From contig OZ237741.1 in assembly GCA_965178125.1 (NCBI GenBank), positions 930,001 through 994,000 of the forward strand: a stretch of 64,000 nucleotides of DNA, in the 5' to 3' direction. Below are positions 4,952 through 55,650 of the stretch, in pieces (position 1 is the stretch's first letter; the number at the start of each line of letters is the position of its first letter). The position numbers were made by a program, and so were the translations under genes. The stretch comes from Bilabrum cf. latius (taxonomy: Eukaryota). Below the pieces are notes generated by a model, which was given only the letters and a program-made list of their open reading frames with translations, searched no databases and was not told the DNA's origin.

Positions 4952-6148
4952 ATGGAGAGACCAATTGATCCTAAAGTTCGAAACATTGATCTTAAATCAC
5001 TGCAGGACAGCCAGGCCCGATTTGCAACGGCCTAGTAGCAGTACGTGGACTCGCACACATCATCAGCTATGCTCGAAGCTTTGCAAGGACCTGCCCCGTT
5101 TGCAGCAGTGAAGGATTCTGCAGCATTGTCAACATATCGTGAGAGAAATGCGTTGTTGACCGTCTTGCAGCTCTTTGGAATGAGACAACCGGGGCTAGCT
5201 TCAGAGTATTCCCGGACCGCACCCGCAGGCGCACAAGTAGATGCAGTAAAGAAATCAATCGAAGGAGATCTGTCGGAAGTTTCCTCACAGCGATAGATAT
5301 TGCGAGATGTTTCGCATTAGTTTGCAACATCATACGGCTCGGCATAGCGCAAGCAGCAAGAGCTTGTTGATGTCAAGTCAGAAATCGCGGCCTTGAGAGC
5401 TGAACTAGCAGGCGGTATTCCTTGCGAATCGGACAGCACCTCTCTTGGTTCTTCATTGCACACATCCGTTCCAATGTCGGATGCTCCTGCTGGAGGCGAG
5501 TCCTCAGAGCTCGCTGAGGCCAAGCGAGCAACGGCTGAAGCAGTTGCGTCTGCCTCGGCTGCCGAAAGGCGAGCCATCGACGCAAAGGAGCGCGCATCCG
5601 CAGTCACAAACGCAGCAGAATCAGCAGAAGCGAGGGCGGCAGCGCTCGAGCGCGCTGCCAGTGAGCGAGCGAGCAGGCAAGTGTCCAGCGCACAGCAGGT
5701 CGCAAACGCGAAGGCGTGGTATGAGGCGGCGGCAGAGGCCGGGGACCGCCTCCTGGGAGTGAAGGTCCTTGAGGCACATGCGGAGAGGGTGTGTCTGCAG
5801 GTGAGGGGTAAGGGCGGGCCCAGGCGGCTAGCGATCGGCTTGCGATCGGTGAAGGGCAGGCGGGCAGCAGGAGGCGGCAGGGCCCAGGGCACGAGCTCTG
5901 GCGCTGGCGCTGGCGCTGCCCTCGGGGCCCCATCCGCTACGGATCCCAGCGGGTATGGCGGGGTTCTGCAGGAATCGATTCCGGTTTGGGCAACAATCAC
6001 GCTGCCTGGGAGGGATTAGGAGGACGAAGAAGCGGCTGGTGGCTGGCTGGATGCTGCGGTGGACGCCGCGGCCGCGCTGCACGGCGACTCGGCTCCGGCG
6101 ATCCCCGCAGCGCAATGGGTCGTGCTCGAAGTTCTCAAGAGGATCTAA
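4952..6148 (+). CDS. Coiled-coil protein of unknown function (Zwint/Kre28-like architecture is only a guess)
   Basis: ORFs 5045..5296 and 5393..6019 are in frame through TAGs, including GCC TAG TAG CAG (A-Q-Q-Q). Ends TAA 6146-6148. Start is ambiguous (in-frame ATGs 4916-4952). Confidence 0.65.
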
Positions 6149-9300: not shown

Positions 9301-10199
9301 GTGAGGACTTCAGGGTGGTTTCTATGAGCCCGAGGGAAGAGATGCTAGGTGCATTTGCCATCGACGAGGTGCGTCACTGTGCCCCTGCCGCTTTACGCAT
9401 GGCTGCAAAGCAGCAGCCGTGGCAATGGATCGATTCTGACTTCAGGCTGCTAGAAGCGGTGGAGTACGTACTTAGCTACTTTCCACGGTGCCAGCAACTG
9501 CGGTTGTTCTACCCGTAGCGGCGTCAATTCCAAGTGTATGAGTGGCAAGAGTAGTATCGGTTTGAAGCAGGGTTGCTTCGAGACAGGGACTCTCACAGGC
9601 TGCAGGATGAGCTGGGCGCCAGGCTGCTGGCTCACATGTCCTATGGGGGCGTCAATGCGGATCGTGCGACCAAGGTTGGCTTTGAGGATGGAACATCCAC
9701 AACTCAGTATGAGCTGCGATGCCAGTGGGCCACGGGCGGAGATGCTGACAGAATCAGTGATCTTACTTATATAGACTAGGGTGTTGGAGTCGAACTTCAG
9801 CCGCTCCTGCGATTGTGTGATGCCAGCGTGCACGACTAGACGACTCTTGGCACTGGCGACTCCGCAACCAAGGCGATCTAGGTTGCGCCCGGGGCCGCCG
9901 CAGTTGCTGCAATGCTGCACATCGGCAGTTTGACCGCAGCAATAGACATCAAGAATGAACTGACTTACTACTTGAAGCAGCTGCGTAGGCTAGTGAACGT
10001 GCCTGCTTGCGCGCACCTGTCCCTTGCAACGGCTGGCTGGCTGACGAAACGGTCCAAGTGGTCGCCGCGGCGCGTATGGGCGGTGGAGTGGCGGGCAGCT
10101 GTGGGGCAAGCCCGTCGGGAGCGCGAGTTAGCTGTCGTGCAGCAGGCCCTGAATGACAAGCTGCGTCGGTCCCGCCACGGGGGTCAAGCCCCGAAGTAA
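6327..10199 (+). CDS. Large ankyrin-repeat protein (about 1290 aa)
   Basis: Seven ORF-track fragments share a frame and are separated only by TAG. Ankyrin-like motifs GMNVLHCAA, GEGPLHLAC, GWSPLMVLC, QNALHML, GQTPLHL. Ends TAA. Confidence 0.8.
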
Positions 10200-10383: not shown

Positions 10384-13300
10384 TTAGACCGACTTGCCCT
10401 GCCACGCCTTGACAGCAGCAGTCGCGAATTGCTCAAAAGCTTCGTTCACGGCGTCCTCTGCGATGCGCTCCTCCACCGACAAAAGCGTGCTAGAGGTCCT
10501 CGAAGGTGCCACCAGAGTCACCTGCGGAGATCCTCCGCTGTACCTCGACTCGAACAGCCACCTGTGATCCAGAGACAGGTTCAGCTCGCATGCCTTCCCA
10601 TGCAGCTTGGTTGGAGTACTGCCTCCAGATGCAGCCCCTGACTCTGCTATCCTTTCCCAAGTTGACCGTCTCGTCTCCACGGGCAGCACCCCGGCGGACC
10701 GCCCTCGCACTCGAGCCAGGATGGCGCTCATCGAGGCTGCGGGCCCAGACCCCGGCATGCCAAGCACGGGCCTCGACTCGCGAGACGAGGCATAGCCCAG
10801 CCTTCCCTTGCCTGACCGCGATTCGGCGAGCTCGCTGATGGATCCACCGGATGCAGACGCGCTAACTAAATGCGGCAGCAGCACCGCGCCCTCCGCCACG
10901 TTGGCAAGGACATCGATGGCCTCTCTCGACACCTTGCCCTCCTCGCGCAGCTTGCGGATTATCTTTACGGCCTGAATGGCACCGAAGGCCTGCCTGAGCT
11001 CAGCTCGCGCAGTGTCGGCATCAGCCCAGGCTAGTCGGTTGGGTAACCCACCGCCCGAGGCCATCCCACTGCTTGGTACTCCCAGCGGGCGACCGGCGTT
11101 AGGATCGCCCCCTCTATCCAGCCAAGCTAGGACCTGCTTGGGTTCTGGAGCCATGCGAAACATGCACAGCGCCGCTGGGGCTGAGCTTCTCTGCTTCACG
11201 AGTGGGCTCGCTGCGGGTGCCCGTCTCGATGGGACAGAAGGCGACTGCACCACTGTCTAGCGAGCAGCGGCGGCCTTCTCCTCAGGGGTTCTTGGAATCA
11301 TCGGGTGGAGGCCAGAGCCACCCGATCGAGGGCTATACCTCCGGAACAGATCAGCGCCAGAGGCCGCTGCATCGGCAGGTGAAGAGCGCGCGGAGCGGTC
11401 AGCAGATGGGGTGGCAGGGGCGCTGCCAGCCACCGGCAGTCGCGGCACACCACCGTTGCCACCGGCGACAACCTCGCCGCCATTTCCAGAATGAGAACCG
11501 CCGGCTGCTTCGATGTCGTCGTCGCCAATTTCAATTTCGCTGCCGCTGTCATCAGGGTAGTCCTCATCGTCCTCGTCCTCCTCTTCGGACGGACCGAACT
11601 TGCCCTCACCCCTCCACGCAGTATGAAAGACTGGGTCTCGAGGCAGCCTGAAGCGTACGTTTCCCTATATCATGGCCTCTTGAAGCTGGCAGTACCACAC
11701 CCGCCCTTCCTCAGCGGCCATCCGCGCCTACTCTTCCTCTGCACCCCACAGTGGGTCTGGCAAATCAAACACCTATGCTGGAAATTCCGCAGCGGCCGTA
11801 GCCTCCTCCCCTTCAGCGGTTGGCTGCGCTGCTCCTTCGGAGGCCTCATTTCGAGCTCTAGCAGCCACGCTATCGCTCCTCGTGTTCCCCGCACCTTCTT
11901 CCCCCCGTTGCGGTGGAACACCATCTTGGTCCGACGGGGGCACCGCTGACTCTACGGGCTTCTGTGGCAGCCGTGCCTGCTCCGTTGGCGGGTGGGGAGA
12001 CATCAAATACGCTGGCGGCGGGACTGCTCCCTTTGGAGGCGCGGGTGCTGCCGTTCGCTTGGCTGATTCCTGCCCAGCATCGTCGCGTGGCGGCTGGTCG
12101 TGTTCTTTCGCGGCCGATGGTGGTACTGCTGCCTTTTCGATACCGTCTTCAGACTGCGCTGCCTGCTTGGCAGCCTGCGCATCCAACGCAGACATCGCCT
12201 GGCCAGCGATTACCCTTTGCGCTTGCCTGGCCGCCCACGCCATCGCAGTCTGTCGCACCCCAGGGTCGGTGATGTCTCTGCCAGCCTTCTCCAGAGCAGC
12301 GATGGCTCTTTGAAACTGCATCCTGACCTCTTTGGCCACGTCAACCTGGGAGGTGGATGCATCTTCGTCAACTGCTGATGATGGAAGGCCGCTCTGGCCC
12401 GGCGCCTTGGAACTTGCCGAAGCTCGAGATTCCGATTCCGAGCGATCGGCTGTACTATCGTTATCGTTGGCGGGGCGACCAGCTTCGGGCCTGTGCTGTG
12501 CATCCTGCTCGTCTGTACCTGGAGCCTTTGGCCCAGGCGCGTGTTCGCCGGGCTGCTGCCGTTTGGATGTGCCCACCACCTCCACACGATCAGCTTTGGG
12601 TTCCTCTACATCCACTGCGCGCCTCGCTGCGGACCCGGCCGCGATGCCGCCCGCATTTCCGCTGTGCGAGCTGGCCTCCGCTGGTGCAGAATCATGTACA
12701 ACCGCTCCAGACTCTGAGGTCTCATGGTCTCCCTGCACGCTACCGTCTCCCGCATCAGACGCGCTATCAAGCACGAGGTCAGCATGCCGTTCCCACGCGC
12801 CGGCATCCATCCAATCTGGGTGCCCCGCCTCCCCGCCAGCCCCCATCGAGGAAGCTACCACCGAGCCCGCCCTGCTTGCGTACCCACTAGCACCTGTGTA
12901 CGTACCACCGTATTCAGAGGAGCCTCCAGACCAGGGCTACGTCTCATCCTCGTCTCCTGCACCCACTGATGGCCTGCCGCTTCCCCCCGATACAGCTCCG
13001 CCGTGCGAATGCTGGTGGTGGTGGCGACCGCCGTCTCCCTCCACCGAGCTATCGTCCTCTTCGATCTCGTCGTCAGGAATGTAAGCACCGTCTGCAAGCT
13101 CCAGACCCACGACGATCTCCCTAGCCTTGCTGCCACTTGCAGAGGCCTCCTCTACACCACCCCCTTGCAGCAGTCGCACGCGTACCGGACCCGCTTCTCT
13201 AGTGCCCTCCGCCTCGTCATCCACCTCGGCTTCCGCATCAGCCCTCGATCCCCTGGCCGTGCCCCAAACGGGCAGCTTTGACTTGAGCTTCCTGCACACC

Positions 13301-16300
13301 CGGTGTGCCTCGACTACCACGGCAAGCGCGACGTCGTCGTCCTCCCTGCCTCCAGCCAGCGCGCCCGGGGGCACGATCTCCCGTGCACCCAGGCTGCGCA
13401 GCGAGGCCCACGCCGCCTCAAGGTTCCGCCTTCTGGAAGGCTCCGTGGGCGTCATCCACTCGCAGCCTTGCGCGTCCAGAGGGACCACGACTCTGCCCTT
13501 GCCCTTGGTGGCAGCACCTGCCTTGGGCTTGGAACCGCCGTCCGCATGGTCCTCCGGCGCCTCTTGGCTGGACACACCTGCGTAGTACGCAGCGACGCAG
13601 ACGAAGTCTACGCCATCCATGGCTCGCCTCCAGAGCCCCTTTTGAAGCGGCTTTAGCTCTCCATCAGCCTTCGTTCTCCCACCTTTGCCGCCTGCAGAAT
13701 CCGCCAGCTGCTGCTCGATGGCACGCCTGCTGGTTCCCGCCACTGGTGCCCTGCCGAACTTTCGCACGATCCCAGAGAGCCACCGGAGTGCTGAAACGCC
13801 CTTTCTCCGTGCACGTCGGATGCACCACGCGTCGTGCAAAGCGCAGACGAGCTTGCCGCCTGCCTCGGGGTCCTTCGCAGCGAACACTGCACCAGCAGGA
13901 GGAATGGACATCTTGTCCACGTCCCCCTTCCAAGCAGCCCGCAGGCCGATCTCGAGGTTTCGTAGGGCGGCGGCACGCGTCCTGGGCTTGGCCTCTACAT
14001 GAGCCCTGGCCACATCCTGCGCCTGCGTGCGCGGTGCAGCACCCCTGGCCACCGCGCAGAGGAGCAGCCCAGACCTGAGCTCCTGAGACAGGTTCTCCAG
14101 TCGAGCCGCCTGCGGATCGTGCGGTGCACCTGCCACGGCTCGCGCCCAGCTGACTGCGTGGGCGAGACGGTCGGGACCCTCGGGCACTGCCGGCAGGCGG
14201 TGCTGCACAACCGGCTGCGGAGCGACGGCGTCGGCGGCTCCGCCTTCAGGAGCGCTCGCCCCATCGACCTTTCTCGAAGCCACGTCTCTAACCCCCCGCG
14301 CGCCCGTGCGCTGCATATGGGCCCTCCCCTCCGCCCTAGCCCGCTGCCTATGCCCTGACCGGGGATCCACCGGAATGCCCCTGGCTGGAGGCCTCGTCTT
14401 CGGCCTGCTCTCGGCGCGGGGAGACGAGGCACCGATGGAGTTTCGGCGGCCCCTCATGCTGCGATGAGGCTGTCTGGGCACGGGAGGTTTTCTCCTACTG
14501 GTAGCAAGGTCGTTGTCGTCCAGCGCTGCCTGGGTCGAAGTCAGCGACTTGAAGGGCAGGGGCCGGCCCGGCGTGACCCCGTTGCCATGTCTGCGCTTGG
14601 GAATCCCGCTTCCGCTGCGGACGCTTCCGCTGTCCCTGCTGGCGTGGGAGCCCCTGCGTCGCCTGTGTGAGCCATTGTCCGGTGCGTGGGAGGATCCCTG
14701 CCCATCGCTGCCAGCCGTGCTGCCTGCTTTGCCGTGCTTGCGCTCCTGCCTCAGGACGCTGTCTACCACGGGCGAGCCCGCGTCTAGCGAGTGCACCAAG
14801 GGGTCGTACTCGGTGGCACCGGCGGCATCCCTCGCAGGGGGCTTCCGAGTTGATTGCCTTCCGCCCGTCGGGGCCCCGCGACGGTGACGGCTGCTGCTTG
14901 AGGCGTTCCCAGCGGGTGCTGATCGGAGGGAGGAAGCCGCGCTTCCGCGACGCTCCCGACCACTTGGCGCTGGGGTGAGCATTGGAGCTGTGGGCATCCT
15001 CGAATCATCGGCTGGTGCGGTGCCTGGGGCAGCGCCATCGACTGCGGCGTCGAATGAAGAGCTGGCGCCAGCAGGTGGTACCTCGTCGTCGTTCTCGCGT
15101 CCCCCGCTGGTACGCCCGCGGCCTCGGCCCGCCCCACCACCTCGTCCACGACCTCCGCCACGACCGCGGCCACGGCTAGTTGCCGAGCCACCTCCCCTGC
15201 CCCTACCCCTGCCCCGTCCCCGTGCAGCAGCAGTGCCGCCCCTCTCGACAGCAGAGCCGCTCGTGCTGTCCGCCTCCTTCTGCGGCGCTTCCTTTGAGCC
15301 TGCTCCAGGCTGCCCTGGTTTAAGCTGTTCCTTCTCCTTCTGCGCCTGTGCCCTGCGCTCCTCAATGTGCTTCCTAAGGGCTGGATCCTCTTGGAGCGCC
15401 AAGTCAACGGATCGGATCACATCCATCGCTCTCTCCTGGAGCTCAGCGCTGCCAGGCTCCAGCCTGCCTTTGTCTCTGGGCCTGCTAGGGGTCCCGAATC
15501 GAGAGGAGGGGCGAGAGCCTCCACGGCTACTGGGACCCTTCGGCTTGGCAGCACCAGGATCAGCATCTGCAGAGGATGGTTCAGAGCTACCTTGCTGCGA
15601 TTGCTCGCCGGCACCAACAGCTTTAACTCCTGAGGCACCAATACCAGCTTTATCTGCCACATCGGCTGCCTCCTGAGGCACTTCTCGTCCTGAAGCACCA
15701 ATACCAGCTTTATCTGCCACATCAGCTGCCTCCTGAGGCACTTCTCGTGCTGAAGCACCAGTAGCACCAGTAGCACCAGTAGCACCAGTAGCACCAGCAC
15801 CAGCACCAGCACCGCGAACAGGCAGAGCCGTGGGGATGCCTTCCTGATCATGCCCCACAGCAGATACCCCACTCGGAGCATCATCGCTTTGAGCGCCCAT
15901 AGCACTATCAGTAGTGCTGTTTTGGCCGTGCAGGCCCGCGCTCGCACCAGATCCACCCCCGCCGTATGCTATGGATTCAAGCGATCCCAACACCCTGTCG
16001 CCGCCATCGCTGCGCCACCTGGCCTTCTCCACAGGGCTTCTCACCGGGCTTGGGCTCTGACTGGGATGAATTGACATTGGGGGCAAGGGGCGGGGCTCCC
16101 GTGGGGGCGGGCTCTCCGCAAGCTTGGGTGCCCCCTCCATGTCTGCCTGCAGGCCGTCGGCCTCGTTCTCTTCCATCGTGTCAGATCGCCAGGGAACAAC
16201 GCCAGCTCGCCGGCGAAGGTACAGCTGCACGGCCCCCAGAGCTCGAAGCCACTCCTGGCGGGCTCGCTGGGAGGGTGCCTGCAAAACGAAGGTTCGCTGA

Positions 16301-17565
16301 GGGGTCAGCAGAGCGAATGATCGCGGCGGCATGTCACCCCTCCCGCCAATCACGCCCTGTACCACCCCTGGCAGCGGGCCGCCGCCCGACTCCTCCCCGA
16401 TGGGACACGTGCCGTCCCTGGCGCACGCCTTCACTGTCTCAGTCTCCGCAGTGGGCACGAGGAGCGCCTTTACATCACCGAGAGAGAAGGCCCCCTGCGA
16501 GCTCTCGCTGGACCTGGACTTGAAGTACTGTGCCGAGGAGGGGCGCAGCACGAACCACCTTCGCTTAGAGGAGGACCCGCTGCGGCCCCTCTTGTGCAGG
16601 TACCCGTGCAGGACAGCCCTTCCCTCCGGCCCGTGGAGGCCGCTGTCAGTGTCCTCCTGCGCGGCCCGCGCGATGGCGTCCGCTGCGGCCCGCACCTCGG
16701 GCAGGTCCTGCAGCTCCAGAGGATCCATAAAGCCCGCGGAACATACCGGCGCCGCGCGGAGTGACGATGGTAGAGGTGCCGCGGGGGACAAGACGCCCGA
16801 CCGACCAGACCCTGACCCTGCACCCGCTCCAGCTCCAGATCCTGAGGCAGATACCCTGCTGCCCGCGCTCGCGCCCAGAGTGCCCCTGTGGTGCGAACGA
16901 GACCCAGTCCCTGAGCCGGCTGCCTTGTCAGTCCTGGGCGTGTGGTAGCCTTCGCTCTCTTTTCGCCCGGAGCGACGGTCGTCCCCGCGGCTGCTGCGAG
17001 AGCGAGCACGGGAGCGGGACCTGCCGTGACGCCGGCTCCGGCGGGATCGGCTTCGACTTCGACCGCTCCCCCGGTCTCTACCACCATCGCGGCGCCTTTC
17101 CCTTGGAGAGCGTGAATGACCTCGACTACCATGCTAGCTGCGAGGAGTAGCGTCCGTGACGACTTGCAATTCACCGGTTGCGCCGGGTTCAACCATGCTT
17201 GGTGAGTATCCCGTGGCAGCGTACGGGCTGGAGCCCATTCCCTGCGTCTGTTGCAGCCCATACGCTGCAATCATTGCTTGGTACTACTGCTATACCGCGT
17301 CCGAGGTGGAGCCTCCAGGGCCCGTAGAGGAGACTGCTCCGGGAGGCGGCACAGGAGAAGCATGTGCGACTGATCGCGAGGCTCCTTCTGCAACGCTAGC
17401 GTAGAGATCCCGGTTAGAAGTATTCTACGCATGATCTAATTCACCGTCTTGCGCACCGGTCGGTGGATGGGGTCCTGCGTCCAATTCACCGCCATCCCGA
17501 GCCTTTCGCTTCTGACTCGGTGGCGTGTACGCTGGAGGGTGCGGCGAGAACATTTGCTTCGACAT
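10384..17565 (-). CDS. Very large (about 2390 aa) low-complexity protein with a PH domain and two calponin-homology-like domains
   Basis: Single frame through about 9 TAG. PH: GYLHKRG...KRRWFVL...RTFVLQAPS...EWLRAL. CH-like: LRSGLLLCAV...LRNLEIGL and MDGVDFVCV...RNLEAAW. Ends TAA 10384. Confidence 0.8.
15628..15810. repeat. Coding 60-bp direct repeat (2+ copies) with adjacent 9-bp/6-bp GAT/GA repeats
   Basis: tgaggcaccaataccagctttatctgccacatc... recurs with a 60-bp period, encoding REVPQEAADVADKAGIGASG twice. Confidence 0.85.
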
Positions 17566-18594
17566 AGCACAGCCAGGCTCAGTTAAATTGAAAGATTAGA
17601 CAGAACCGGAGGATGTCTACCTGTAGTTTCGTGCGTAGCGGGTGGATGCTGGGCGTCGAATCAACCCGCGAAACTTGCAGGAAAGTGCACACTACATTTG
17701 GCCAGACTGGGCGATCCAGCGATAGCCGCGGCTACACATGACCGGCAGCTCGCCTGGATGTGAGTTTGCTCTCACTACGAGCTTCACGGACAGCAGCCAT
17801 CACGCGCGAACGAGACTAGCCGCAATATTGTTTGAATTGAACAACCGTCGGATGGCAGGACTCGCAGCGGCACGTGGGTGATAAACACTGGTCACGCACA
17901 GTACCGGGCTTTGCACTGGGACACACAAGCCTAGTTACGAGGCAAATTGAGGTGCTATTGGCTGGTGAAGTACGAGGCATCACCAGTCCAAAAATTGCAT
18001 GATCACGATCGAGACAGGCCCTCTGCAGCGGGACAGCGAGTTTGCTCTCCCCACGGCCTGGTGTCCAGCCTGAGGTGCTGGTGACCACTGCCAGTGGCAC
18101 GAAGGCCTGCACCCTGAGACCACGAAGGGGGCAATTGGCGACTTTCGGGCGGATGACGGGAGTGCGGGTGATCCGAACAGCAGCAGCAGCAGCAGCAGCA
18201 CTTAGGTCCTGCCGAGCAATAGAGAGCCTGAGGTGACGCCGCCAAACCGCCCCTTCCGAGCCGGGACGTGCCAGTGGGGAGCGGATACATCGTGGCACTG
18301 GTTCGGTGTGCCAAGTGGGGGGTATTCGAACGTCGGGCAACCAACGGCATGCTACATCAGAAATGCGACTGATTGCCCTCACTGAAGGGCAACGCCGGCA
18401 ATCACGTGGCCCAACAAGGGGGGAGGGTGCAGCAGCTCCATGCAGTGGAAATGGCATGGGTACTATTGGGCCGATGGCATGTTCATGACGTGTGTCTATG
18501 ATACCCATCCTTTATACGTAGGTACATGTGGTAGGTCATTTCCTAAGTCTTCAAGTTGGCGGTCTTGGATCCGTCAGGCAGCTCAAGCCCGGCA

Positions 18595-21500
18595 ATGTCA
18601 TCCGATCGCACCCTAAAGATCACTATACCTCTACAATCAATCGTCATCACTATTCACCTTGGATTCGTCCGAAAATACTTCTATGTGGCACTAATCTAGT
18701 CTCTCAAGGCCATTCGGGCAGTTGCTTCGTAGGTGGTGTTGAATCCGCGAAACCGGAAATCCAATACGGAGGCTGCTCGCTTCAGTTTTCTTCAAATTCG
18801 GCTTGCTTTAAGTCATCGACAGTCAATCAAAACGATGCATTCCATTCGAACGCGATATACAGCCTCCCTAGCCAAGCGCCTTCGGCTCAAGGCGCTTACC
18901 AGTGGTCGCCGAGCAACACTGCAAGTGACGGCGACATCCACGCAGCAGCTGCCGCAGGCTCTCGGCGGGCCATCCAACAGGAGTAGTGAGGGCAAGGATA
19001 CACTCACTCCAATCAACGATATTTCTCGTATTGCGTCGAATGAAGGCGACGGCGGTCGCAAAGGGCCAGGCTAGTAGAAGGCATCCAGATTGCGGCAGCT
19101 TTTCCTGTCACTGGCCGTCCTGGCTTTCATCAACTACATTCTGAGAGAGCATCTATGGGGTTACTACGAATGGGAATCAAATAGTGCGCTGCTCAGTGTT
19201 TGCTCGCAGCTCCCCAGGGCGTACCATTGGCTCCGGCACAGATACCTATCACTTGGCATGCGCTCGTTGTCAGATACCGTAGCGATCGTCAGGGATCCCA
19301 AGATGGCGGAACAGGAGCCGATATTTGACAATTTGACGAAAGATCCAGCGCCAGGTTCGAGGCGTCGCGTGGTTTCTTTCGAGCACGATGGCAGGAAGTA
19401 TGCTATCCGAGTGTGGGAAACTGGCCCAGCTTCTGGACCTGTCGTGGTCGTCAACGCTGGGACCATTACGATGGCTGCTCCTCTCATGCGGACTCTTGGC
19501 AAGCAAGTGCGTGTTATTGCGTACGAACACGCGGGCATGGGCCCGGATGCAGGCGCCCTGCTGTCTGCCGACTCCAGGCAAGCCGCCAGCGCCCCTGTGT
19601 CGGGCCGGTATGTTGCCATCGAGCAGGCGGCCAAGTCGTTCCAGCGCTCGTTCGAGAACAAGTACATGGTAGACCCCAGGCTGGTTGACACTGATTTCAT
19701 CCGCAAGTTGCGTGCAGTTTTGAATGCCTTCCCAGAGCTGTTGCAGACTGTCAGACAGGAGCTTCACGAGGCAGCCACCGATGCCAAAGACTAGGTGGCG
19801 GGGAAAGGGGAACCATAGAACGAAGTACGGGGTGCACCTGCCGCTAACACCGATCCAAGCCCTTCAGATCCTGGGACACGGATCATCTGGCCCATCGTCG
19901 ACTCCACACTCGATGCGATGAAGCGGACGGTGCTTCCTGCGCTGGATGCAGAGTCACCCCTCCCTACACATGATGACTGCAAGGACGGCCGTTCGATGCA
20001 CGAGGAGATGCATCCTGTGGGAGGGGTGAGCAATCTGGACGACAGCACGGATCCATCGGGCATCCTCCGAAGATTGAGGAAGTCGCAGGAGCGGCGACTC
20101 AAGGCGGTGCACGTGTGGCTGTACGGGGATATGGATCCCACGCACGGGTACTGCGAGCCTTTTTCCGCGGAGCAGGACACGCTTTAGAACTGCCTATGGG
20201 ACTTTAGTGACCCTAGAAGCGTGTACTGCGCTTCCACTATCAGGCGACCCATACCATCCCCCTATGCCCCCTTTACTGGCGTACGCCTGCCATTCGCTCC
20301 AACACCAGAGCTCGAGTCCAAGGAGCTCACGGCGGTGCTGCAGTCTACGGTCACTTCAGATGACCCTGTGATCCTTGTTGGAATGCACATGAACTGGTTG
20401 TCAACCCTGCAGTTTTCCGCCAGGAACGCCGGCGCCATCGCTGGGGTGGTATTGGTGGACCCTTTGCTGCCCTTCAGCCAGGTCCCGCTTACGGCATCGG
20501 GAGTGGCGACGACGTGCGGCGTAACGAACATCACGGATTCTAGGCCCATAGTGGCCGAACAGGCCAATTCGGGCATTCAATTACCCTTAAATTCCCGCAC
20601 AGGCCTGATGCAGGACACGTTGCTCAAGGAGGCCTTACAGGGCAGGAGGGATGCCATGGGGCGCTAGACACTCGACGCCACACAGGTACTAGATGCCTTC
20701 GAAATCAAACGATTCCCAGAGACTGTCATCGACTACGTGAGGCAGGCTACCACTGACATTGAGAGTGGGGCGCAGCGGCCGCTCTACGGTGGGTATCACG
20801 ATCAGTGGCTGCTGGGCAAGGTCGGTGCTCTGCACAATGGCGCTCCCTGGCCGAGCCCGTCCACTCGCCATTACTGCCAACCACTTGTGGATGGATCGAC
20901 TGGTAAAGGACGCCGCATTTGCACACAACCCCGCCCTACGGCAGTTCTCGATCGACTCGCTGATTGGAGACTCGCGTCCTGGTCCCGACGTGTATGCAGC
21001 CGGCAAGACGGGATCCAAGGAGCTTCAGATGGCTGCATCCGTGAGTCGGCGGGCCGAGTACGTCCTATAGCAACAGGAGTGCCTGCGCGTCAAGAACTAC
21101 CTGGCTAGTCTGTATGCAGCTGCCAGCGAGGCATCCTTCCAGGAGTGGACAGTAGCCCAAATGAACACAGAGGACAACGCCAAGCAGACGTTGTCTGCAT
21201 TGCGTGCTATTCGAGACAGGACAGACGCACTGACGTCTTCACAGCTGCCCGCAAAGCCTGCGCTGCATAAGGAGTTGAAAGCAGCCAATCGCATGAACCT
21301 GCATGGTCTTGACCTTGACGACGTCACCAACCCCCTGTTTTCCGCACGCGGGTTCCTCAAGGAGATGCAGTCGAGACATTCCGGGACAGCTGCCGCCGTG
21401 GACCGTCGGTACGCTACCCAGCTCAGCATAGACGCCAGGAGCATCGCTCGAGAGGCGCTGGTGCGCCAGGGCTGCATTGAGGTGGATACGAACGGCACCA

Positions 21501-22753
21501 CGTACGCCAAGAAGCCGTGTCCCTCCAGGGCAATGGCGATGAAGACGGCCTAGCACAGCCTGCAAGAGATCATGCCGCATGAGTAGCAGCTGGCCGAGCT
21601 GACGATGTTTGATCTCGACGCAGAGGTGCCGTGGAGGGCACACAACCACGACTCTGTGGCTCTGAGCGGGCTGCATCGCGAGATGCTCGGCTTGCTGTCT
21701 TCGTCGCGACTTACGTGCTCGGTGCACGTGCTTGTAACCCAGCCACTAGCCGACAATTTGTAAGAGACACCTGCAGTACTAGAGGCTAAGCTGGGCAGCG
21801 GCTTGCCGAGCGGGAAGTTCTTGGTGAATGCCGGGGATTAGAATCGGGTTCTCGATCCCTAGGTGTGGGACACAGCTGCGGGGCCCAAGGATATTGGCAC
21901 CCCGTCCGGCAGGAAGCACCAGCTTCCGATCGATAACAGCGACGTCAGCCTGAAAGAACTTATCGGGCCCTCGTTTAGGCCGGAACTGGGAGAGGCCATC
22001 CGACAGAGGGTGGTTCCGAAGCTGTCCTCCGATGCCATGCAGGCGCTGGACCCGATCCTGCAACGCATGGAGCCAAAGGACTGGGGCCTTCTCGGCGCTT
22101 TCTCGGACGTTGATGGCAAGATGAAGCAGGCACCACACAGCAGCTACCCTTTGCTGGACTTCAATGTGGCACCGTTTGACCCGTCTAGCTCGGCAGTGAA
22201 GTCCATGACCAATGACACCAAGACGCTCGTGGATGCCGATGACCTTGGACTGAGCATCAGCAAGACGACGCTGCCGCGCGAGGATGCAGCCCGCGTGCGT
22301 CTCCTTAGAAGCCTTCATAAGAGCCGGCAGGCGGAGACGTCCCACCAGTGGGAGCAGCTCCTGCGCCACCCCACGAATGGGAAGAGGCGATCCATGGTTC
22401 CAGTCGAGAGCCTCACACCCCAGCAGAAGCTAAAGGCTGGGGAGACGGGCAACTGTCCGACCCTCGTGGGGGACTTGCGTGTGCCCGCCGGTGCAGTGGT
22501 AGTGCCAGAGTGGGGCTACCCCGGGCGAGGGTACTTTTGCACCCAGTCCATGCAGTTTGGGGGGCACAGGCCCAACCTCGGTCGGCTGGTGCCCGATGTG
22601 GGAGGAGGGGAGCTGGAGCCTGATTGGGGGGCGGTGTCCAAACACGTTGGGCAGCTGGTGACCGACCACTAGCATGCGAAACGGAAGCAGGCGAAGCTTA
22701 CGGACAAGCAGAGGGCAGCCCAAGCGGAAGGAGAGGGGCAAGGGAGGCAGTGA
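18595..22753 (+). CDS. Large protein with a TM segment and a degenerate alpha/beta-hydrolase fold; contains one unexplained +1 frame change and one in-frame TAA
   Basis: VRVIAYEHAGMG and PVILVGMHMN...GAIAGVVLVDP resemble abhydrolase motifs. About 14 in-frame TAG; frame change near 20820-20860; TAA at 21761; ends TGA 22751. Confidence 0.55.
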
Positions 22754-38069: not shown

Positions 38070-39909
38070 TTAAATCGTGCCATGGTCACCACCGGCACAC
38101 CCCACGCCCCAGCGCACGCAGCAGTAATTGGAGTTCGTCCTTTTCCACTGAGCAGCGCCGGTAGCCGCGTAGGCCTCGTAGGTGGGCTGGTTCGCACCAC
38201 CGGAAAAGTTGTACGAAATCGCGGGCGGAGCGGGCAGCAGCCCGAATGACTGGGGCACCTCCTTGGGTGGCTGGAAGAAGTTGTGCGTCACGCTGTACAG
38301 ACTCTGCTGCTAGGCGAGCTCCTGCGCCAGGCAAATGTTGCGTGCTCTTATCGTATTGTTCATCCCTTCCTCGGGCTTGTACTGCCAGCCCTGCTCGCTC
38401 GCAAACAGCCGGACCTGGGGCTGCACCCCGACGCCCGAAGGCAGCACCCCGCCGTATTTCTGAAGGAACCTTTTCTGAGGTTCGCGGACCATCTGGTCGG
38501 CGGTGGCAAAGGTAGCCGCTCCATTCGCAGACAGGTTGTGCCTCGGGTCACCGTTGTCGTAGAGGTGCGTCACCACACCCCACGGAACCGCGCCACCCAT
38601 CGGCTGAGGCAGCGACTCGTTGACCGCCAGCTGCCTCCAGATCGCGTCTAGGACGTCCACGCCCCCCTGTTCCTGCACCCTCCCTTTCGACATGCTCTTG
38701 GGGGCCTGCATGAAGTGGTCCAGGCTGACCCACAGGGTGGCCCCTCGCGTGTGTTCCCTGGCTGCCGCATGGGCCTCCCGGAGCAGCCTGGCATTTACGG
38801 CCCCCAGCACGTCCATTTGTTCCCTGGTGTAGGGCTGGTCCACGTAGCGGTTGGGCAGCACGGGGCTTGGGTCTCCCCACCCCTGCGACTGGATCTCGTT
38901 CCAGATCACCAGGCCGCTGAGACGGCCCCGCGGGAGCAGCTTCTCGTCACTGCCCTCGCGCCTCGTCTGGCAGTTGCGACCAGGGTCCGCGCAGCTGGAC
39001 TCGGAGCGAACCTCAGCGAACGTTCCGTACCGCTCCGTGACGAGCACCACGAAGTCGTGCCAGTCGTCCATGTGCTCCCAGGGGTAGCAGCCCAGCTTCA
39101 GGGAGCCCCCCTTCCATGGGAACCCGGTGCAGTTGGGGTGGATGGCCCAGAGAGGGGTGCCGTACAGGATGAAGGAACTGGCCGCGCCGATGGAGGCGTC
39201 CAGCTGCGTGGCCACGTCGAGCTGCTCCAGCTGCCCCGTGCTGTAGCAATGGTAGTTCCGGTATCCCCGGCTGATCCGATCCGACTCGTTGGACGGGATG
39301 CGGATCTGCCCCGCTGGACATGGGGGCAGCCGCACGCTTGCGGTGGCATCCGATTGCCTCAGATGATCGCGATCATCTGCCGACTGCACTGCAGTTGGTG
39401 GTGGTGGGGTGCTCTTGGCCGGCTCAAACCCGATCCAGAACACGTTGTACCGGCGCATTCCCGGGCGTAGCTGGCTGCCAGCCACCGCGTACCGCTCCTC
39501 CAGAGCTTCGAATCCGTTGTTTCGCAGTGTGCTCATTGTCATCTGATCGTCGTCGTGTCCCTGGATCCCGATCAGTTCTGGGAGGCCGCGATCCAGAGGG
39601 TCGCTCCACCTCGGACTGTTGGACACCGTGGTTCGCATCTGGCGCACCGTCTGGCACGATGTCTGGCCTGGACGAGTTCGCCAGCACTGTCCCGCAAATA
39701 AAGGTGGAATTAATCACAATTTGAACGGTGCTTGGGCCCTGAACCCCGGGCTGGTACGCCCAGCCCCTGATTCGGAAGGGAGGCTGAGCTGGACCAGACA
39801 AGTTCGAGGGATTCAAAGCGCTCAGAATACCATCAAAGCACCCTGCGCTCGGTGGATACTCTCTAGCAGTAGTAATCAGAGCAAGAACTGCGAGCGGATA
39901 CAGTCGCAT
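38070..39909 (-). CDS. Secreted clan GH-A glycoside hydrolase-like protein with an apparent frameshift near 39625
   Basis: Signal-like N-terminus; IRGWA...RPDI...NHG module; VIWNE and ASEQGW catalytic-type motifs; C-terminal YCC..WG.GC then TAA. TAG CAG CAG at 38310. Confidence 0.7.
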
Positions 39910-49440: not shown

Positions 49441-51126
49441 ATGCTCCATTCCCGGCTGACTGCCCGTGCTACCGGCGCGAAGCTATTGTCACGGCTATGC
49501 CGATCACTCTCGACCGCAGTAGTTCCAACTTTGGATCTGTCAACAGCAGGCAGGCGTGGCCACCTGGTGCTAGAGAGAAGCGATGGATCGTAGACACTAC
49601 ATTGGGGCGACAAGATACCGGAGGGTGATAGCATCGCGGCCGACTGGAGGGTGCTCCATCGACGGCCTGCGCTCATTGGCAAGCAGTCCGCAGCCCCTGT
49701 GCCTGGTCCCGGCCGGGTTCTTGTTCTGAAAAAACCTGGAATATCCGACACAACACGCATGTTGTGCAAAACAGCCGATAGTCTTGCTGCAGAGGGGATA
49801 GAAACGCTCATTGAGCCGAATGTTGCCGTCGGTGACCGGGCCGAGCTATCGTTTGCTGGCGGCGCGGTGGTTCGAACGTGGGACCCAGAACAAGCAAGCA
49901 TGGTGGGTCAAGCTGTAGATCTTGTTGTTACCCTTGGGGGGGATGGCACTATTCTGTTCGCCAGCTCCAAGATCGGAGCGGATCTTCCCCCGGTGCTCGC
50001 GTTCGCCATGGGCACCCTCGGCTTCCTGACACCGTTCGACACTGAAGATCTTCAGGCTGCCATCCGGCGCACTCTACGTGGCGATGTTCCAGTTCATTGC
50101 AAGCAGAGGATGCTCGCACACATTGAAGGCGAGAAGCCCGCCGTGCAACCGGAGGACGCGTTGCAACCAGACAGCCCTGCCCTCGTCGTCAACGACGTGG
50201 CTCTCTCCTTCGCCTACCCAGGACAGCGACCGCCGCCGATCGTGCGGTGCCGCGTGAACGAGCGAGACATTCTCACGGGCGCGGGCGAGGGGCTGATCAT
50301 CGCGACCACCACTGGGAGCACCGCATACTCGCTGTCGGCGGGCGGGCCGCTCGTTGCTCCCACAGTCCCTGGGCTGCTCATCACACCCCTGTGTCCCGCT
50401 GACAGGTCAGACGCAACTGCTGCTGTTGTGTCAGACCAAGCAACCGTAGTAGTGGAGACGAGGGCAGCCATGCCGGCCGCACCGGGCAGGGAAGCGAGCA
50501 CAGAAGCACCTGCTCAGACGAGCACCGGAGCACCTGCTCGAGAGACCGAAGAAACGGCTGCCCATCAGGAGCCGCATTGGGACCCCGCGCAGCTCTTTAG
50601 CCCCAAAAATCGGCTATGGCGAACTTCCATCTACGAGCAGTGGCTGGACGCCGAGAAAAGCGAGCGGCCAACCGGGATATTTCCAGCGGGAGAGAGGGCG
50701 AGGATCGAAGAGGCGACTGCGGCGCTCGAGTCGCCACTTGCACACCGTGACGGTAATAGCAAGCCGGACGGCCCATTAGCTGGTCATGAGAGATCCCAAA
50801 GGCAAAGCAACGCGGGAGCGGACTCGGAGGCAACTACCCCACTCGGCGCTGCCGATGGCGAGGAGCAGGTGCTTCAAGCGGGTGCTCACTCAACAGACAC
50901 GAGCGGGTACACGAGTCTTGCGGTAGATATCGACGGGACGAGCGTGGGTCCGCTGAGACCAGGGGCCAGGCTGGTGATCAGGCCTGCAGACAGCCCGCTA
51001 GTGACAGTCAGCGCGCAGGCTCCCCTGCAGGATTGGCTCTCGGACGTGAGCAAAGTGCTCAATTGGTCCAAGCCGCCTCAGCGGAGGGTCGAGCTGAAGC
51101 GCATCGGAACGGCAGGGCATGCATGA
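49441..51126 (+). CDS. NAD(H) kinase, probably mitochondrial
   Basis: LGGDGT, GTLGFL, VVND, GLIIATTTGSTAYSLSAGG; Arg/Ser-rich N-terminus; TAG 49591; ends TGA. Confidence 0.9.
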
Positions 51127-51357
51127 CCCAAGCAATGGACGGAAATTCGAAGAAGGCATAGATTTGTTGATTATATTCAGGAATTGCCACAAACCCAACT
51201 CAACAGTAGACCCATGCAAGTGCACTAGAAAGGGCAGCATGCGCCGCAAGGCTGCAAGCCACCCTAATTCTCCTAGCACTTTGGGCCCTGCTGCAAGCCC
51301 CTACATCATCTCCGCCCGTGGGGCACCAGATCGGCCAAGTCCGGTCCAAAGGCTCGT

Positions 51358-53643
51358 TTAAAGCTCCATCGGAAGCTTGTCTTCCAATTCCGAGTCCGAT
51401 AGAGAGCTCAGCTGCATCTTGGATTCGGGGCCCGGAAGCGCAGTCGTGAACCGATCACTGCTGCTGCCAGGGGTGGCCCCTTTGCCTGCACCGACACTGG
51501 CGCCAGTTCCTGCACCACCTCCCGCACCGGTGCCCGCGAGCCCACCAGTGCGTGTACCCTTCCGACTCTGCCGATCGGTCCCTCTCTCTAGCCTCCCCCC
51601 TGCAGGGACCGACCCGGCGACGAGCACAGCTGCCGAGGGGTTCACCAGCCGCAGCGGTCCGCCCCCTCGTCCCTCTTTACCTGGAACATCGCTTCCCTTT
51701 GACGCGTTGAGGTCGAGGGTGCCCTTGGACCCGCTCGCCGAGGGGAGCAAGTTGCTCACGAACTAGAGATTGGACACACCATGCGTGCCCCAGGCCACTC
51801 CGCTCTGGCTCTGGCTCTAGCTCTGGCTCTAGCTCTGGCCCAAGTCAGACCGCCGGGTCAGCAGCACTTCGTCATCTTCCTATTCTTCACACCCACCCTC
51901 CTCCCCGCCCCCGCCCCCGCCCCCGCCCTACCCACGGTGGCGGAGCAAGCTGCCGTTGGGTTCCATGATCTAGCCCATCCCCACGATGGGGTGCACAGCG
52001 GACCCCCCGCCGCTGTTCCCCGGGTTGTTCCCTGCAGCCACCTCGCCCTCACCCCTGCCCTTGCCGTTGCCGCCCTGGATGGCACCCTCCTCACTGCCGC
52101 TGTTCCTTCTCTTCTTCGTCCGCAAGGACGGCTGCCACTGCCTCAGGTAGTCGCTGATGGCCCACACGAGTTCCCAGGTGGCCCTTGTCGTGGCAGGAGG
52201 GGGCAGGGCGTACCCATACGTCTCCTGCTCGTCCACCACACGCTGCAGCCTCGTCCTGCTCCTCCGAATGGACTCCTCGGGGCCCTCATCGCTGTTCCCT
52301 GAGTCTCCAGGGCACAACTACCACTTGATCGCGGCGCCCACTCGCACCAGCACCGCCAGCCCAAGGAGACCCAGGGCACACAGAAACACGACGACCAGCT
52401 GCCTGTTGGCGTTGTCCGGAACTGCGCCTGTGCCGCTCGCATCCTGGTCCCCGAACCACTGGATCTCCATCTAGGTGTATGCTTCTGTCTTCCACGTCTT
52501 TAGGATGGCCCGGTTGATTGTTTCCCGCAGCCAGGAGGGGGCAGCGGGACCCACCGCGATACCGTACTGCTGTTCCTCAAAGACCGGTCCAACCACGCTG
52601 AAGGCACCCCCGCCGCTATTCACAAAGTACGCCAAGATGGGAAAATCGTACACAACGGCGTCGCCACTCCCGCCCTCGAACGACTCTAAAGCGGCAGTCA
52701 CCGAGTCGTACGTGCTGACCTACACCCCGACTCCGTGTCTGCGTACGTACGTCTCCGCGGTAGAGCCCACGGGAACATTGACTGTCTTGCTTCTCAGGTC
52801 GCCAAAGCTCCCGATTTGTGAGACGGGGGCCTCCTGCAGCATGTACACCGTGACGAGTGCGGTCACCACGATGGTGAGCAGGGGGCCGAGCACCTTGAAT
52901 ACGAGCAGCGCTGGCTTGACGAAAGGTCCTTCTGGCTCCACGGCGTCCTGCCCGAACAGGCCGAGGAGAGCGATAGACGCGGCGGCCTCGAATTTCTGGT
53001 ACTCTGTCCCGCCCTCTGGCCATGCCTTGACTGGGCCTCTCGAGCACTCCTCCAGAGGGACGAGCAACAGTCCGCCGGCGAGGGCGCACACTACAATCAC
53101 ACCGAGGAAGAGTCCCGCCGCCTGGCCCAACGTTCCAAACAATGCAAAAGAGACTGACAGCAGGTCCGTCTGCTCTCTGGCGAGCACGCGGAATCCAGAC
53201 ACGAACCACGAGTGGCTGAAGTCGAGGTTGAAGGTGCTCTCTCTCGAGGACGTCATCGTGATCGCCGTGTGGCTGATGTCCACCTCACCGAGCCCAGCTC
53301 CTCGAAGCATTTCGACTGTTGTGGGGTACTCCGTGAAATTGAGACACGAAAAGTCGATGGGATCGTTCAACGGTGGCAGCAAGGAGTTGTCACCCCGCTG
53401 CTCCTCGATAGCAGCAACTTCCTGCTGCACCGCAGGCACAACCATCTCTGCCCAATACTACATTGCAAACCCTGTGTATGGGGCTGTGAGCTCGATCGGT
53501 AGAACGCCTTCCGCGTCGTCTCCGCTCATGGTGAATGGAGGCGTTATTTTTACTCCCATGTTCAAACATCGGAGAGCCAACGCATGATGAAAACAAAGCA
53601 TCAACACAGAAACTGATATTTCCTTGCGGGCAGACTCGGTCAT
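51358..53643 (-). CDS. Ionotropic glutamate receptor-like channel without an ATD (S1-M1-P-M2-S2-TM)
   Basis: AITMTSSRES.FNLDFS, TM helices, LRSKTV.V..GSTAE, DAVVYDFPIL, QYGIAV, INRAIL...WFG. About 10 TAG; ends TAA 51358. Confidence 0.85.
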
Positions 53644-54152: not shown

Positions 54153-55650
54153 TCAGAAGCACTTGCGGTGCACGATCGAGGGCCCGCTCTCGTCATACTC
54201 GTCCTTCGAGATCCACATGCTCTGGAAGGTGGAGAGCGAGGACAGGATGGATCCGCCGATCCACACCGAGTACTTCCTCTCCGGAGGTGCCACCACCTTG
54301 ACCTTCATGGTCGGAGGTGCGAGGGCGCTGATCTCCTTGGTCAGCCTCTTCTCGATGTTGGGGAACATGGTGCTGCCACCGGACAGCACAATGTTCTGGT
54401 ACAGGTCAGACCTGATGTCCACGTCGCACTTCATGATGGTGTCGAACAGGGTCTTGTGGATGCCATCCGCCTCGAGGCCGACCTGGCTGGGCTGGAAGAG
54501 GGTCTCGGGGCACCTGAAGCGCTCCGAGGCGATGGAGATCGTGTTGCCGTCGGGCAGGACGTACTGCTTCTCGAGCTCGGACGAGGTCTCGGCCTTGCCC
54601 ATCTCTGCGTCAAAGTCCTCCGCCACGTAGCAGAGCTTCTCCTTGATGTCGCGCACGATCTCGCGCTCGGCGGTCGTGTTGAATGAGTGCCCGCGCTCGG
54701 TCAGGATCTTCATCAGGTAGTCGGTCAGGTCCCGGCCCGCGAGATCGATCCTCTTGATGGCGTGGGGCAGCGAGTACCCCTCGTAGATGGGCACGGTGTG
54801 CGACACGCCGTCACCCGAGTCAAGCACGCAGCCTGTCGTGCGGCCAGAGGCGTACAGGGACAGCACGGCCTGGATGTTGATGTACATGGCAGGGACGTTG
54901 AAGGTCTCGAACATGATCTGGGTCATCTTCTCCCTGTTGTTCTTGGGGTTGAGGGGGGCCTCGGTCAGCAGCACGGCGTGCTCCTCGGGGTTCACGCGCA
55001 GCTCGTTGTAGAAAGTGTGGTGCCAGATCTTCTCCATGTCCTCCCAAGAGGTCACGATACCGTGCTCGATAGGATACTTCAGCGACAGCACACCGCGCTT
55101 GGCCTGCGCCTCGTCGCCCACGTAGGACTCCTTCTGGTCCATGCCTACCATGATACCGGGGTGCTTGGGGCGACCCACGATGGAGGGGAAGACTGCCCTT
55201 GGTGCGTCATCGCCTGAGAAACCGGCCTTCACCATGCCGGATCCGTTGTCAACCTGCGATAGATGAATACGAATGCATTTGACTAATAAATAGTGGCGGC
55301 TATGCTTTCACGTATGCTACCTGGTGTGCGTGTGCCAGAAATGCGGCCATGCTGAGTCGCCCATGTTCGGCGGCCCCCCAGAGGCATCGCAGCAGGCGCG
55401 TCGCGGATCTGACGCGCACATTTGCAGTTATTTCTATGAACTATGCAATTGGACGGTGCGACTGGGGCTACGGCCTGCATGCTGGCGAGCCAAGGGCAGG
55501 TCGCACAAGGTCGCCAGCTGTCGACCGACACTCGCTTCCATGAGGCCGAGATGGTGCACCTTGCGCGTGCTGTAGCAGTGGCAGACAAGGCGCTCGGCAG
55601 CTTGGCTTTGCTTAACTACTCACTACGAGGGGTTGGCTTTCGTCTTCCAT
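54153..55650 (-). CDS. ACT: Actin, 375 aa; exons 55650-55624 and 55253-54153
   Basis: [21 protein letters not shown]...SIVHRKCF then TGA; GTGAG...GCAG intron 55254-55623. Confidence 0.98.

Follow-up and report, generated by a model that had tools for sequence, protein, structure and literature searches.

For a long time, the shared decoding of UAG and UAA was believed to prevent the two codons from taking different meanings. In the UAR = Gln code (NCBI table 6), found in many ciliates, in hexamitin diplomonads and in some Ulvophyceae, UAA is a common glutamine codon and UGA the sole stop. Condylostoma and Blastocrithidia use position-dependent codes, in which the same codon is frequent inside genes and serves as terminator at their ends. 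Three reports name only a handful of eukaryote lineages whose codes split UAG from UAA (PMC5304391, PMC11687900, PMC8271138). The fornicate Iotanema spirale reads UAG as Gln and stops at UAA and UGA, with UAA as its primary stop, and a T32G change is reported for its eRF1 (Panek et al. 2017, PMC5304391). The ciliates Hartmannula sinica and Trochilia petrani likewise have UAG = Gln and UAA as a stop, and Protocruzia tuzeti is named there as well (McGowan et al. 2024, PMC11687900). Other amino acids have been assigned to UAG with UAA kept as a terminator: Leu in the rhizarian exLh (PMC5304391) and Ser in Scotinosphaera sp. (Li et al. 2021, PMC8271138).

The stretch of DNA analysed here, referred to as the window, comprises 64 kb of Bilabrum cf. 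latius genomic DNA at 60% GC, and the inference of its code draws on these 64 kb and their 23 gene ends. The code in the window matches NCBI table 15, with UAG = Gln and UAA/UGA = stop. Taken as a whole, the window very probably comes from the nuclear genome of a eukaryote with high GC, densely packed genes and few introns, in which UAG encodes Gln and both UAA and UGA terminate. Decoupling of UAG from UAA is not new in kind, having been in print since 2017 (PMC5304391). The lineage of the window, however, looks like one with a UAG-only reassignment that has been unsampled so far, and it appears to add a GC-rich, mainly UGA-terminating member to the lineages with a split code. A full-text literature search for nuclear UAG reassignment in stramenopiles returned nothing relevant.

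With Iotanema the window shares UAG = Gln with UAA kept and the same predicted mechanism, a tRNA-Gln(CUA) together with an eRF1 weakened for UAG. It differs in its gene ends, TGA closing 18 of the 23 complete genes, TAA five and TAG none, where UAA is primary in Iotanema. Iotanema was moreover known from a transcriptome (PMC5304391) and the window is 60%-GC genomic DNA; the likeness between the two is one of code. For the table 15 ciliates the logic of the test was the one applied here, with C-terminal alignments ending at UAA/UGA and UAG spread along genes in the manner of a Gln codon. UAA stands at 93.5-100% of their C-terminal alignments (PMC11687900), whereas UGA dominates in the window. 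exLh and Scotinosphaera share the UAG-only reassignment and differ in the amino acid (PMC5304391, PMC8271138): at the 16 TAG sites of the window covered by the closest relative, Gln occurs seven times, Leu once and Ser never. UAR = Gln codes share the meaning of UAG, but the window has 0-1 internal TAA against 101 TAG, and TAA ends genes. The pattern of Condylostoma and Blastocrithidia was not seen either, since no codon in the window is both frequent internally and terminal.

The case for TAG as a sense codon starts from the reading frames. When TAG was opened, ORFs of at least 300 aa rose from 23 (11,092 aa) to 49 (27,771 aa), while opening TAA instead raised them to 27 (12,694 aa) only. We counted 112 in-frame TAG in 26 stop-to-stop ORFs (18,193 codons). 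From the putative starts onward, these 26 gene bodies (17,272 codons) held 101 TAG, 0 TAA, 134 CAA and 503 CAG. TAG was present in 22 of the 26 bodies, and Pfam domains flanked many of the sites on both sides. Internal and terminal use over the 26 bodies and 23 gene ends came to 101 versus 0 for TAG and 1 versus 5 for TAA, and TGA never occurred internally.

The residues found in relatives point to Gln. Several relatives with 50-95% protein identity were present in environmental assemblies, and their ORFs were broken at the same TAG positions, so that the trait is clade-wide and not a quirk of one assembly. In the closest relative, Gln stood at seven of the 16 covered TAG sites (P = 1e-6 against a background of 3.8% Q); the other nine carried R and E twice each and K, L, D, N and Y once each. 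Fragments from relatives terminated opposite a window TAG at three sites and opposite a window CAG at four close sites, so that they have a stop of their own at those positions. Another fragment, P0034, terminated opposite the window TGA at 22751. DNA of relatives (L001 and L002) came from a metagenome scan with a single protein query and provided three ORFs of 463, 754 and 444 aa. These contained 18 in-frame TAG, 0 TAA, 28 CAA and 28 CAG; the probability of no TAA with 18 expected is 1.5e-8. The relatives' proteins in public collections are fragments throughout. Standard gene calling shatters the genes of this clade, and annotation therefore needs table 15.

The earlier note had placed five gene ends at TAA, and all five were confirmed, each closing a long ORF that stays open only with TAG as sense. 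These ends, with the surroundings of the last one, are the following:

4916..6148, forward strand: Ala-rich coiled-coil-like gene with TAA stop at 6146..6148; 50-codon tail to the next TGA, at the 0.11 percentile, weak.
6327..10199, forward strand: ankyrin-repeat gene with TAA stop at 10197..10199; TGA one codon on, so that this end alone cannot separate stop from sense.
10384..17565, reverse strand: 2,393-codon PH-domain gene with TAA stop at 10384..10386; 13-codon tail at the 0.02 percentile.
38070..39638, reverse strand: secreted glycosidase-like gene with TAA stop at 38070..38072; next in-frame TGA 12 codons on.
51358..53643, reverse strand: CDS of a glutamate-receptor-like membrane protein (solute-binding domain, Pfam SBP_bac_3, weak) with 10 in-frame TAG.
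51358..51360, reverse strand: TAA stop of that gene; C-terminus shared with a relative.
50890..51357, reverse strand: hypothetical read-through tail of 155 codons, from the TAA at 51358 to the in-frame TGA at 50890.
49441..51126, forward strand: convergent NAD kinase CDS with TGA stop at 51124 (Pfam NAD_kinase, NAD_kinase_C).

The PH-domain gene is likewise convergent with the ankyrin-repeat gene. As TGA follows 1-13 codons beyond three of the five TAA ends, those ends alone cannot separate stop from sense. Stop identity at conserved C-termini, proposed at the outset as a check, could be compared with homologues at two of the five ends (51358 and 38070), and TAA fitted at both. The receptor-like gene was matched by eight fragments of relatives at 56-86% identity, which covered all 10 of its TAG sites, and one of them, P0042 (76% identity), has the same last residue, the common end being ...DKLPMEL. 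For the glycosidase-like gene, the C-terminus lies 1-9 residues past a conserved ..YCC..W..GC motif in 13 of 17 homologues, and eight residues past it in the window protein. Read-through of 51358 had been predicted to run antisense into the NAD kinase gene; this was borne out, the 155 codons overlapping the CDS by 237 nt. Their mean log-odds was -0.111 per codon, a 0.002 percentile when ranked among windows taken in frame from genes, and all four scorable post-TAA tails fell under the gene-body median.

Inside genes, TAA is nearly absent and CAA common, as the earlier note had stated from one candidate against about 100 TAG: we obtained 0-1 TAA, 101 TAG and 134 CAA, the TAA count being 0 over the 26 bodies and 1 when the two halves of the gene at 18595..22753 were joined. 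Under a use of TAA like that of TAG, the A:G ratios in other codon pairs lead one to expect 15.3-53.6 TAA, with a gene-weighted value of 36.2 (Poisson P(<=1) = 7e-15), although this depletion statistic is partly circular since the ORFs are defined as TAA-free. Off frame, the same ORFs contained 55 and 57 TAA. A flank scan that makes no use of an ORF definition asked for both 60-codon flanks to be coding-like and without TGA; such flanks surrounded 54 of 870 TAG, 3 of 356 TAA and 3 of 1633 TGA (TAG versus TAA, Fisher P = 8e-6). Of the three coding-flanked TAA, one reflects the antisense shadow cast by the RING/BRCT gene, and another lies six codons upstream of a start ATG. TAA thus resembles TGA and not TAG, and the claimed decoupling of UAA as terminator from UAG as sense held. 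Frequent internal TAA at conserved Gln columns, which had been named as the observation that would speak against it, did not turn up, but one such case did, at 21761.

As to mechanism, a tRNA-Gln(CUA) would decode UAG and spare UAA, with which its anticodon cannot pair, and a tRNA-Gln(UUA) would be missing from the genome. Recognition of UAG alone by eRF1 would have been lost or weakened. No tRNA gene was found in the window or in L001/L002, without any Rfam match, and the eRF1 family was absent among the 32 window ORFs scanned against Pfam.

The single internal TAA deserves closer attention, as it bears on a reading in which UAA has two uses. Two features of the gene are relevant:

21761..21763, forward strand: lone internal in-frame TAA, within a conserved coding stretch; the gene, at about 18595..22753, is unnamed.
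20789..20855, forward strand: site in that gene where the frame changes, through a 67-nt GT..AG intron or else a deletion of 29 nt compared with the close relatives.

The TAA splits two coding-looking ORFs in the same frame, 20741..21763 and 21764..22753, the second with a coding score percentile of 0.66. Around it, 27 of 39 residues are conserved even in a relative of 49% identity (hand count). P0048 and P0075, the two closest relatives (88% identity), have Gln at this position, and P0029 and P0036 have Arg. UAA could then act as terminator at gene ends and occasionally as Gln inside genes, either position-dependently, as in Condylostoma or Blastocrithidia, or in transition to UAR = Gln. The conserved surroundings and the coding-like downstream ORF would fit this, and Gln in both closest relatives is what a synonymous change under TAA = Gln would look like. 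A nonsense mutation would align with Gln as well, however, since Gln codons (CAA and TAG) are the only sense codons from which TAA is reached by one transition. The case is a single one in 17,272 codons against 101 TAG, the relatives' DNA has 0 TAA against 18 TAG, and the gene also departs in frame from its relatives. We therefore consider dual use of UAA unlikely. We hold the same doubt about a lineage between two codes, with UAG fully Gln and UAA a terminator rarely read as Gln internally, 21761 being an example; if true, it would be a living intermediate from a UAG-only code toward the common UAR = Gln code.

Most likely, the TAA at 21761 arose recently by nonsense mutation from a Gln codon, a single transition being enough from either CAA or TAG. 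The gene may be decaying, given that it also shows the frame change: tblastn matches change frame at 20789..20855, the coding frame switches near 20800, and P0028 and P0035 are continuous through the region with nine extra residues. An intron over the TAA was considered and rejected, as GT..AG introns of 17 or 31 nt break the frame, and in-frame ones of 57, 63 or 69 nt (from 21722, 21728 or 21734 to 21790) would remove a stretch conserved at the protein level. ORF 18547..21270 also closes at a TAA, at 21268; this is the out-of-frame tail past the frame change and was left uncounted.

Giant viruses with single-stop reassignments have been described (PMC13524828), and the window could in principle belong to a GC-rich giant virus copying the UAG = Gln code of its host, in which case the statement on eRF1 would concern an unseen host. 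Two observations go in this direction: a 617-kb IMG/VR contig carries a homologue of the receptor-like gene at 35% identity, and four actin homologues of 71-72% identity lie on giant-virus bins. The gene content, however, argues for a cellular origin. The actin gene has a 370-nt GT..AG intron of spliceosomal type (55254..55623), and viral hallmark Pfam families were matched by none of the 32 ORFs scanned. Further eukaryote-type genes encode ValRS, an AGC-type kinase, and SET/PHD and RING/BRCT proteins. Long low-complexity proteins typical of eukaryotes are present, and several proteins have N-terminal extensions before their domains, which may be targeting peptides. GC3 spans 0.54 to 0.88; actin and ValRS, the genes richest in GC3, are both free of TAG. 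A viral origin is accordingly improbable. The sole named homologue, at 39% identity, comes from a foraminiferan, which says little on placement, and a protein-atlas query with ValRS returned bacterial ValRS clusters only. One may speculate that a cellular lineage with UAG = Gln, as proposed here, belongs to a candidate host class for such giant viruses.

A UAR = Gln code of ciliate or ulvophyte type, with UGA as sole stop, TAA rare through high GC and the TAA ends read through, fared worse. It is true that, counted over both strands, TAA is less frequent than the other two triplets (359 versus 874 TAG and 1648 TGA), and the TGA within 13 codons after three of the TAA ends would offer nearby stops. 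Yet A-ending partners are not rare in the window (CAA:CAG 0.27, GAA:GAG 0.35), hence the 15-54 TAA expected, and the relatives' DNA has no TAA with CAA equal to CAG. The read-through tails score as non-coding, the one from 51358 entering the NAD kinase CDS antisense over 237 nt, and P0042 terminates exactly at the TAA position. With conserved C-termini at two of the five TAA ends in addition, the argument of the earlier note against the ciliate-type code was upheld; we regard UAR = Gln as very improbable for the window and close to refuted.

The absence of any code change, with in-frame TAG arising from pseudogenes, introns or assembly errors, has only the bare occurrence of TAG within frames in its favor and is refuted by the gain on opening ORFs, by the codon counts (101 TAG across 22 of 26 bodies, many between Pfam domains, in frames that lack TGA and TAA) and by relatives that have Gln at TAG sites or ORF breaks at the same sites.

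Two other meanings of TAG were tried and rejected. Leu was prompted by a Leu-dominated column (11 of 17, a single site) at the one TAG of the glycosidase-like gene, and Leu occurs at one of 16 sites in the closest relative. Ser was prompted by a comparison with kinase, RING and PHD motifs, and it occurs there at none of the 16. Solved structures were also searched for the residue that TAG encodes; one query was without a match and another had chance matches only. In a solved-structure alignment, two TAG sites of the kinase fell at variable positions (H, D).

UAG is a sense codon with glutamine-like use in the window, and UAA and UGA terminate; the code is of the table 15 type. With standard stops the 64-kb window (57–65% GC) contained few long ORFs, 23 of at least 300 aa with 11,092 aa between them. 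Opening TAG raised this to 49 (27,771 aa), whereas opening TAA instead yielded only 27 (12,694 aa). Pfam searches on 32 ORFs recovered actin, valyl-tRNA synthetase (ValRS), NAD kinase, EngA-type GTPase, ELO and PNP/UDP phosphorylase, as well as AGC-like protein kinase, SET/PHD, WD40, thioredoxin/TPR, ankyrin and PH matches. The SET/PHD gene carries long in-frame dinucleotide-type repeats at 33600-34250 (+), which translate into (Gly-Ala)n and (Ala-Pro)n runs. Neither tRNA genes nor matches to Rfam families were found in the 64-kb window. The main actin ORF lacked its first nine codons; these were found upstream at 55650..55624, beyond the only clear intron among 26 genes:

55254-55623, minus strand: actin intron, 370 nt, GTGAGT..CAG, after codon nine

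On our reading, the window is nuclear DNA from a eukaryote with densely packed genes and few introns.

Among the 23 genes whose 3' ends were counted inside the window, 18 end at TGA and five at TAA, and none requires TAG; TAA 21268 (in an out-of-frame tail), the internal TAA 21761 and one gene running off the window were left out of this count. The five TAA ends listed in the earlier note were all checked, and each triplet is indeed a TAA closing a long, TAG-containing ORF:

6146, plus strand: TAA gene end
10197, plus strand: TAA gene end
10384, minus strand: TAA gene end
38070, minus strand: TAA gene end (glycosidase-like gene)
51358, minus strand: TAA gene end (receptor-like gene)

Beyond TAA 51358 the frame is open for 155 codons, until TGA 50890, and read-through would, as that note had also stated, enter the convergent NAD kinase CDS (stop TGA at 51124) antisense, for 237 nt. 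Frames past TAA ends scored lower than the gene-body median: the coding score of the 155-codon tail lay at the 0.002 percentile of gene bodies, those of the tails of 13, 12 and 50 codons at percentiles 0.02, 0.12 and 0.11, and the fifth tail is one codon long. Two of the TGA-ended genes, at 43047-44972 (-) and 45478-46992 (-), are nearly identical tandem paralogues for an unnamed acidic protein, with identical bases downstream of TGA and no convincing Pfam family.

Internal TAA had been described as nearly absent against about 100 TAG, and our counts agree. The 26 gene bodies (17,272 codons from putative starts) contained 101 TAG, 134 CAA and 503 CAG, and no TAA or TGA; the stop-to-stop ORFs held 112 in-frame TAG, and 55 and 57 TAA in the two off-frames. 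From the A:G ratios of CAR, GAR, AAR, TTR, CTR and TCR codons, 15.3 to 53.6 internal TAA (gene-weighted 36.2) would be expected if TAA were used like TAG, and at most one was observed (P(≤1) = 7e-15), a count that is partly circular because ORFs were cut at TAA. A flank scan using no ORF definition scored 60 codons on each side of every TAA, TAG and TGA, on both strands and in the triplet's own frame, with a codon log-odds table that skipped stops; a site was positive when both flanks were coding-like and free of TGA. This applied to 54 of 870 TAG, 3 of 356 TAA and 3 of 1633 TGA (TAG versus TAA, P = 8e-6; TAA versus TGA, P = 0.07). One of the three TAA, 58169 (+), lies in the antisense shadow frame of a RING/BRCT gene, another, 44993 (-), six codons 5' of a start ATG, and the third is 21761.

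Conserved C-termini were compared for two of the TAA-ended genes, and both ends match those of homologues. For the glycosidase-like gene ending at 38070, 13 of 17 homologues (36–48% identity) end 1–9 residues past a conserved Cys-rich motif, as does the window protein at 8 residues; of the other four, one ends 16 residues past it, two carry long extensions, and one has already diverged ahead of the motif. For the receptor-like gene, a search for shorter proteins gave nine matches, of which eight (56–86% identical) were aligned and P0047 (26%) was left out. The last residue of one environmental fragment, P0042 (206 aa, 76%), is also the last of the window ORF ending at 51358, and this shared end sits in a conserved acidic C-terminal motif. 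The metagenomic DNA sequences L001 and L002 (GC 54–55%), from two relatives, are 63–64% identical across the receptor-like domain. Their ORFs of 463, 754 and 444 aa contain 11, 5 and 2 TAG, no TAA, 28 CAA and 28 CAG, and the two complete ones end at TGA; the probability of no TAA with 18 expected is 1.5e-8, subject to the same partial circularity of ORF definition. The 463-codon ORF, 5' of the receptor-like gene (L001, 149-1540 (+)), has 11 TAG and no TAA although CAA (12) outnumbers CAG (6). Judged from these sequences, the code is common to the window and its metagenomic relatives. The interpretation of the earlier note, that UAA still terminates and is decoupled from UAG, is thus supported by the depletion, the flank scan, the tails, the C-termini and the relatives' DNA.

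Two genes, the receptor-like one and that at about 18595..22753, together have 24 TAG codons, and homologous fragments span 16 of these. At these sites the closest relative has Q seven times, R and E twice each, and K, L, D, N and Y once each, an excess of Q (P = 1e-6) over its 3.8% background in the fragments. In the reverse test, on 21 fragments whose own C-terminus falls inside the alignment, the relatives' stop faces TAG at three sites and CAG at four in close relatives and at a fifth in a protein of 25% identity; other ends face AAG (two sites), ACC, GTG and GAC (one each; these three may be contig ends). Those facing window TGA and TAA (one each) are both true gene ends; P0034, for instance, ends at window TGA 22751. 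Within a (CAGAGC)n run of the receptor-like gene (51790-51850) two TAG replace CAG, where P0042 has Q and R. Together, the tally, the facing stops and these substitutions indicate from sequence comparison that TAG is glutamine. A leucine reading, drawn from a Leu-rich column among the homologues of the glycosidase-like gene, was rejected, as it concerned one deep-homology site only.

Following section 9 of PMC5304391, UAG would be decoded by a tRNA with anticodon CUA, since UUA would read UAA too, and eRF1 would keep binding UAA and UGA and give way at UAG; neither this tRNA nor eRF1 is encoded within the window. Four genes combined have TAG at none of 57 Gln-type codons, versus 13.7% overall (P = 2e-4):

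24375-27332, plus strand: ValRS, no TAG
54153-55650, minus strand: actin, no TAG
56328-57536, minus strand: PNP, no TAG, GC3 0.64
28596-29576, minus strand: ORF g13, no TAG, GC3 0.72

ValRS and actin have the two highest GC3 values of the window (0.87–0.88). Genes with strong bias, at least, seem to avoid the reassigned codon, which suggests that UAG may be slow or slightly leaky there. The final ~80 residues of g13 recur almost exactly inside ORF 29829-30764 (-), which looks like a partial gene duplicate.

On either side of TAA 21761 lies an ORF in the same frame with a coding score; for the 329 codons 3' of this TAA the percentile is 0.66. A search of the region against 1.84 billion representative proteins gave seven matches, all short fragments of 56–95% identity, which were compared along with the other members of their clusters and one additional fragment retrieved by word search. 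Opposite the TAA, Gln is present in the two closest relatives, P0048 and P0075 (88%), and Arg in P0029 and P0036. Short-intron models were ruled out because conservation around the TAA extends even to P0036 (49% identical). The same gene also changes frame:

20789-20855, plus strand: frame change, the coding frame switching near 20800

Fragments P0028 and P0035 run uninterrupted across it with nine extra residues, so that the window is 29 nt shorter here. This could be explained by a frameshifting deletion of 29 nt, or alternatively by a 67-nt GTGGGT..AG intron at 20789..20855, which would restore the frame. TAA 21761 is probably a nonsense lesion, affecting a gene that is dispensable or in decay. 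The Gln/Arg/TAA column would fit a transition series CGA-CAA-TAA or CAG-TAG-TAA. With TAG as Gln, all one-transition routes from sense to TAA start from Gln codons, and fresh nonsense should therefore align with Gln; the alignment does not separate sense from nonsense. Assembly error or heterozygosity takes the probability left over by the other readings. That TAA is on rare occasions decoded as sense or read through, with which the Gln column would equally agree, is improbable.

According to PMC5304391, reassignment of UAG alone with UAA as stop was first reported in 2017, in Iotanema spirale (Gln) and a rhizarian (Leu). Later reports describe it in Scotinosphaera (Ser; PMC8271138) and in phyllopharyngean ciliates and Protocruzia (PMC11687900); in one ciliate UAA is Lys and UAG Glu (PMC10553269). 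This type of code is already known, and the present organism is probably a further lineage with it. As far as these accounts go, UAA is the dominant stop in Iotanema and in ciliates with UAG-only reassignment, whereas the window has 18 UGA and five UAA; its base composition is also unlike that of the described cases. The interest lies in the probable extra lineage, the clade of environmental relatives with the same code and the one internal TAA.

Homologues of two window genes also occur in giant-virus sequences: a receptor-like one, 35% identical, lies at 10001-11290 of a 617-kb IMG/VR contig (L003), and four bins (L004-L007) contain actins 71–72% identical to that of the window.
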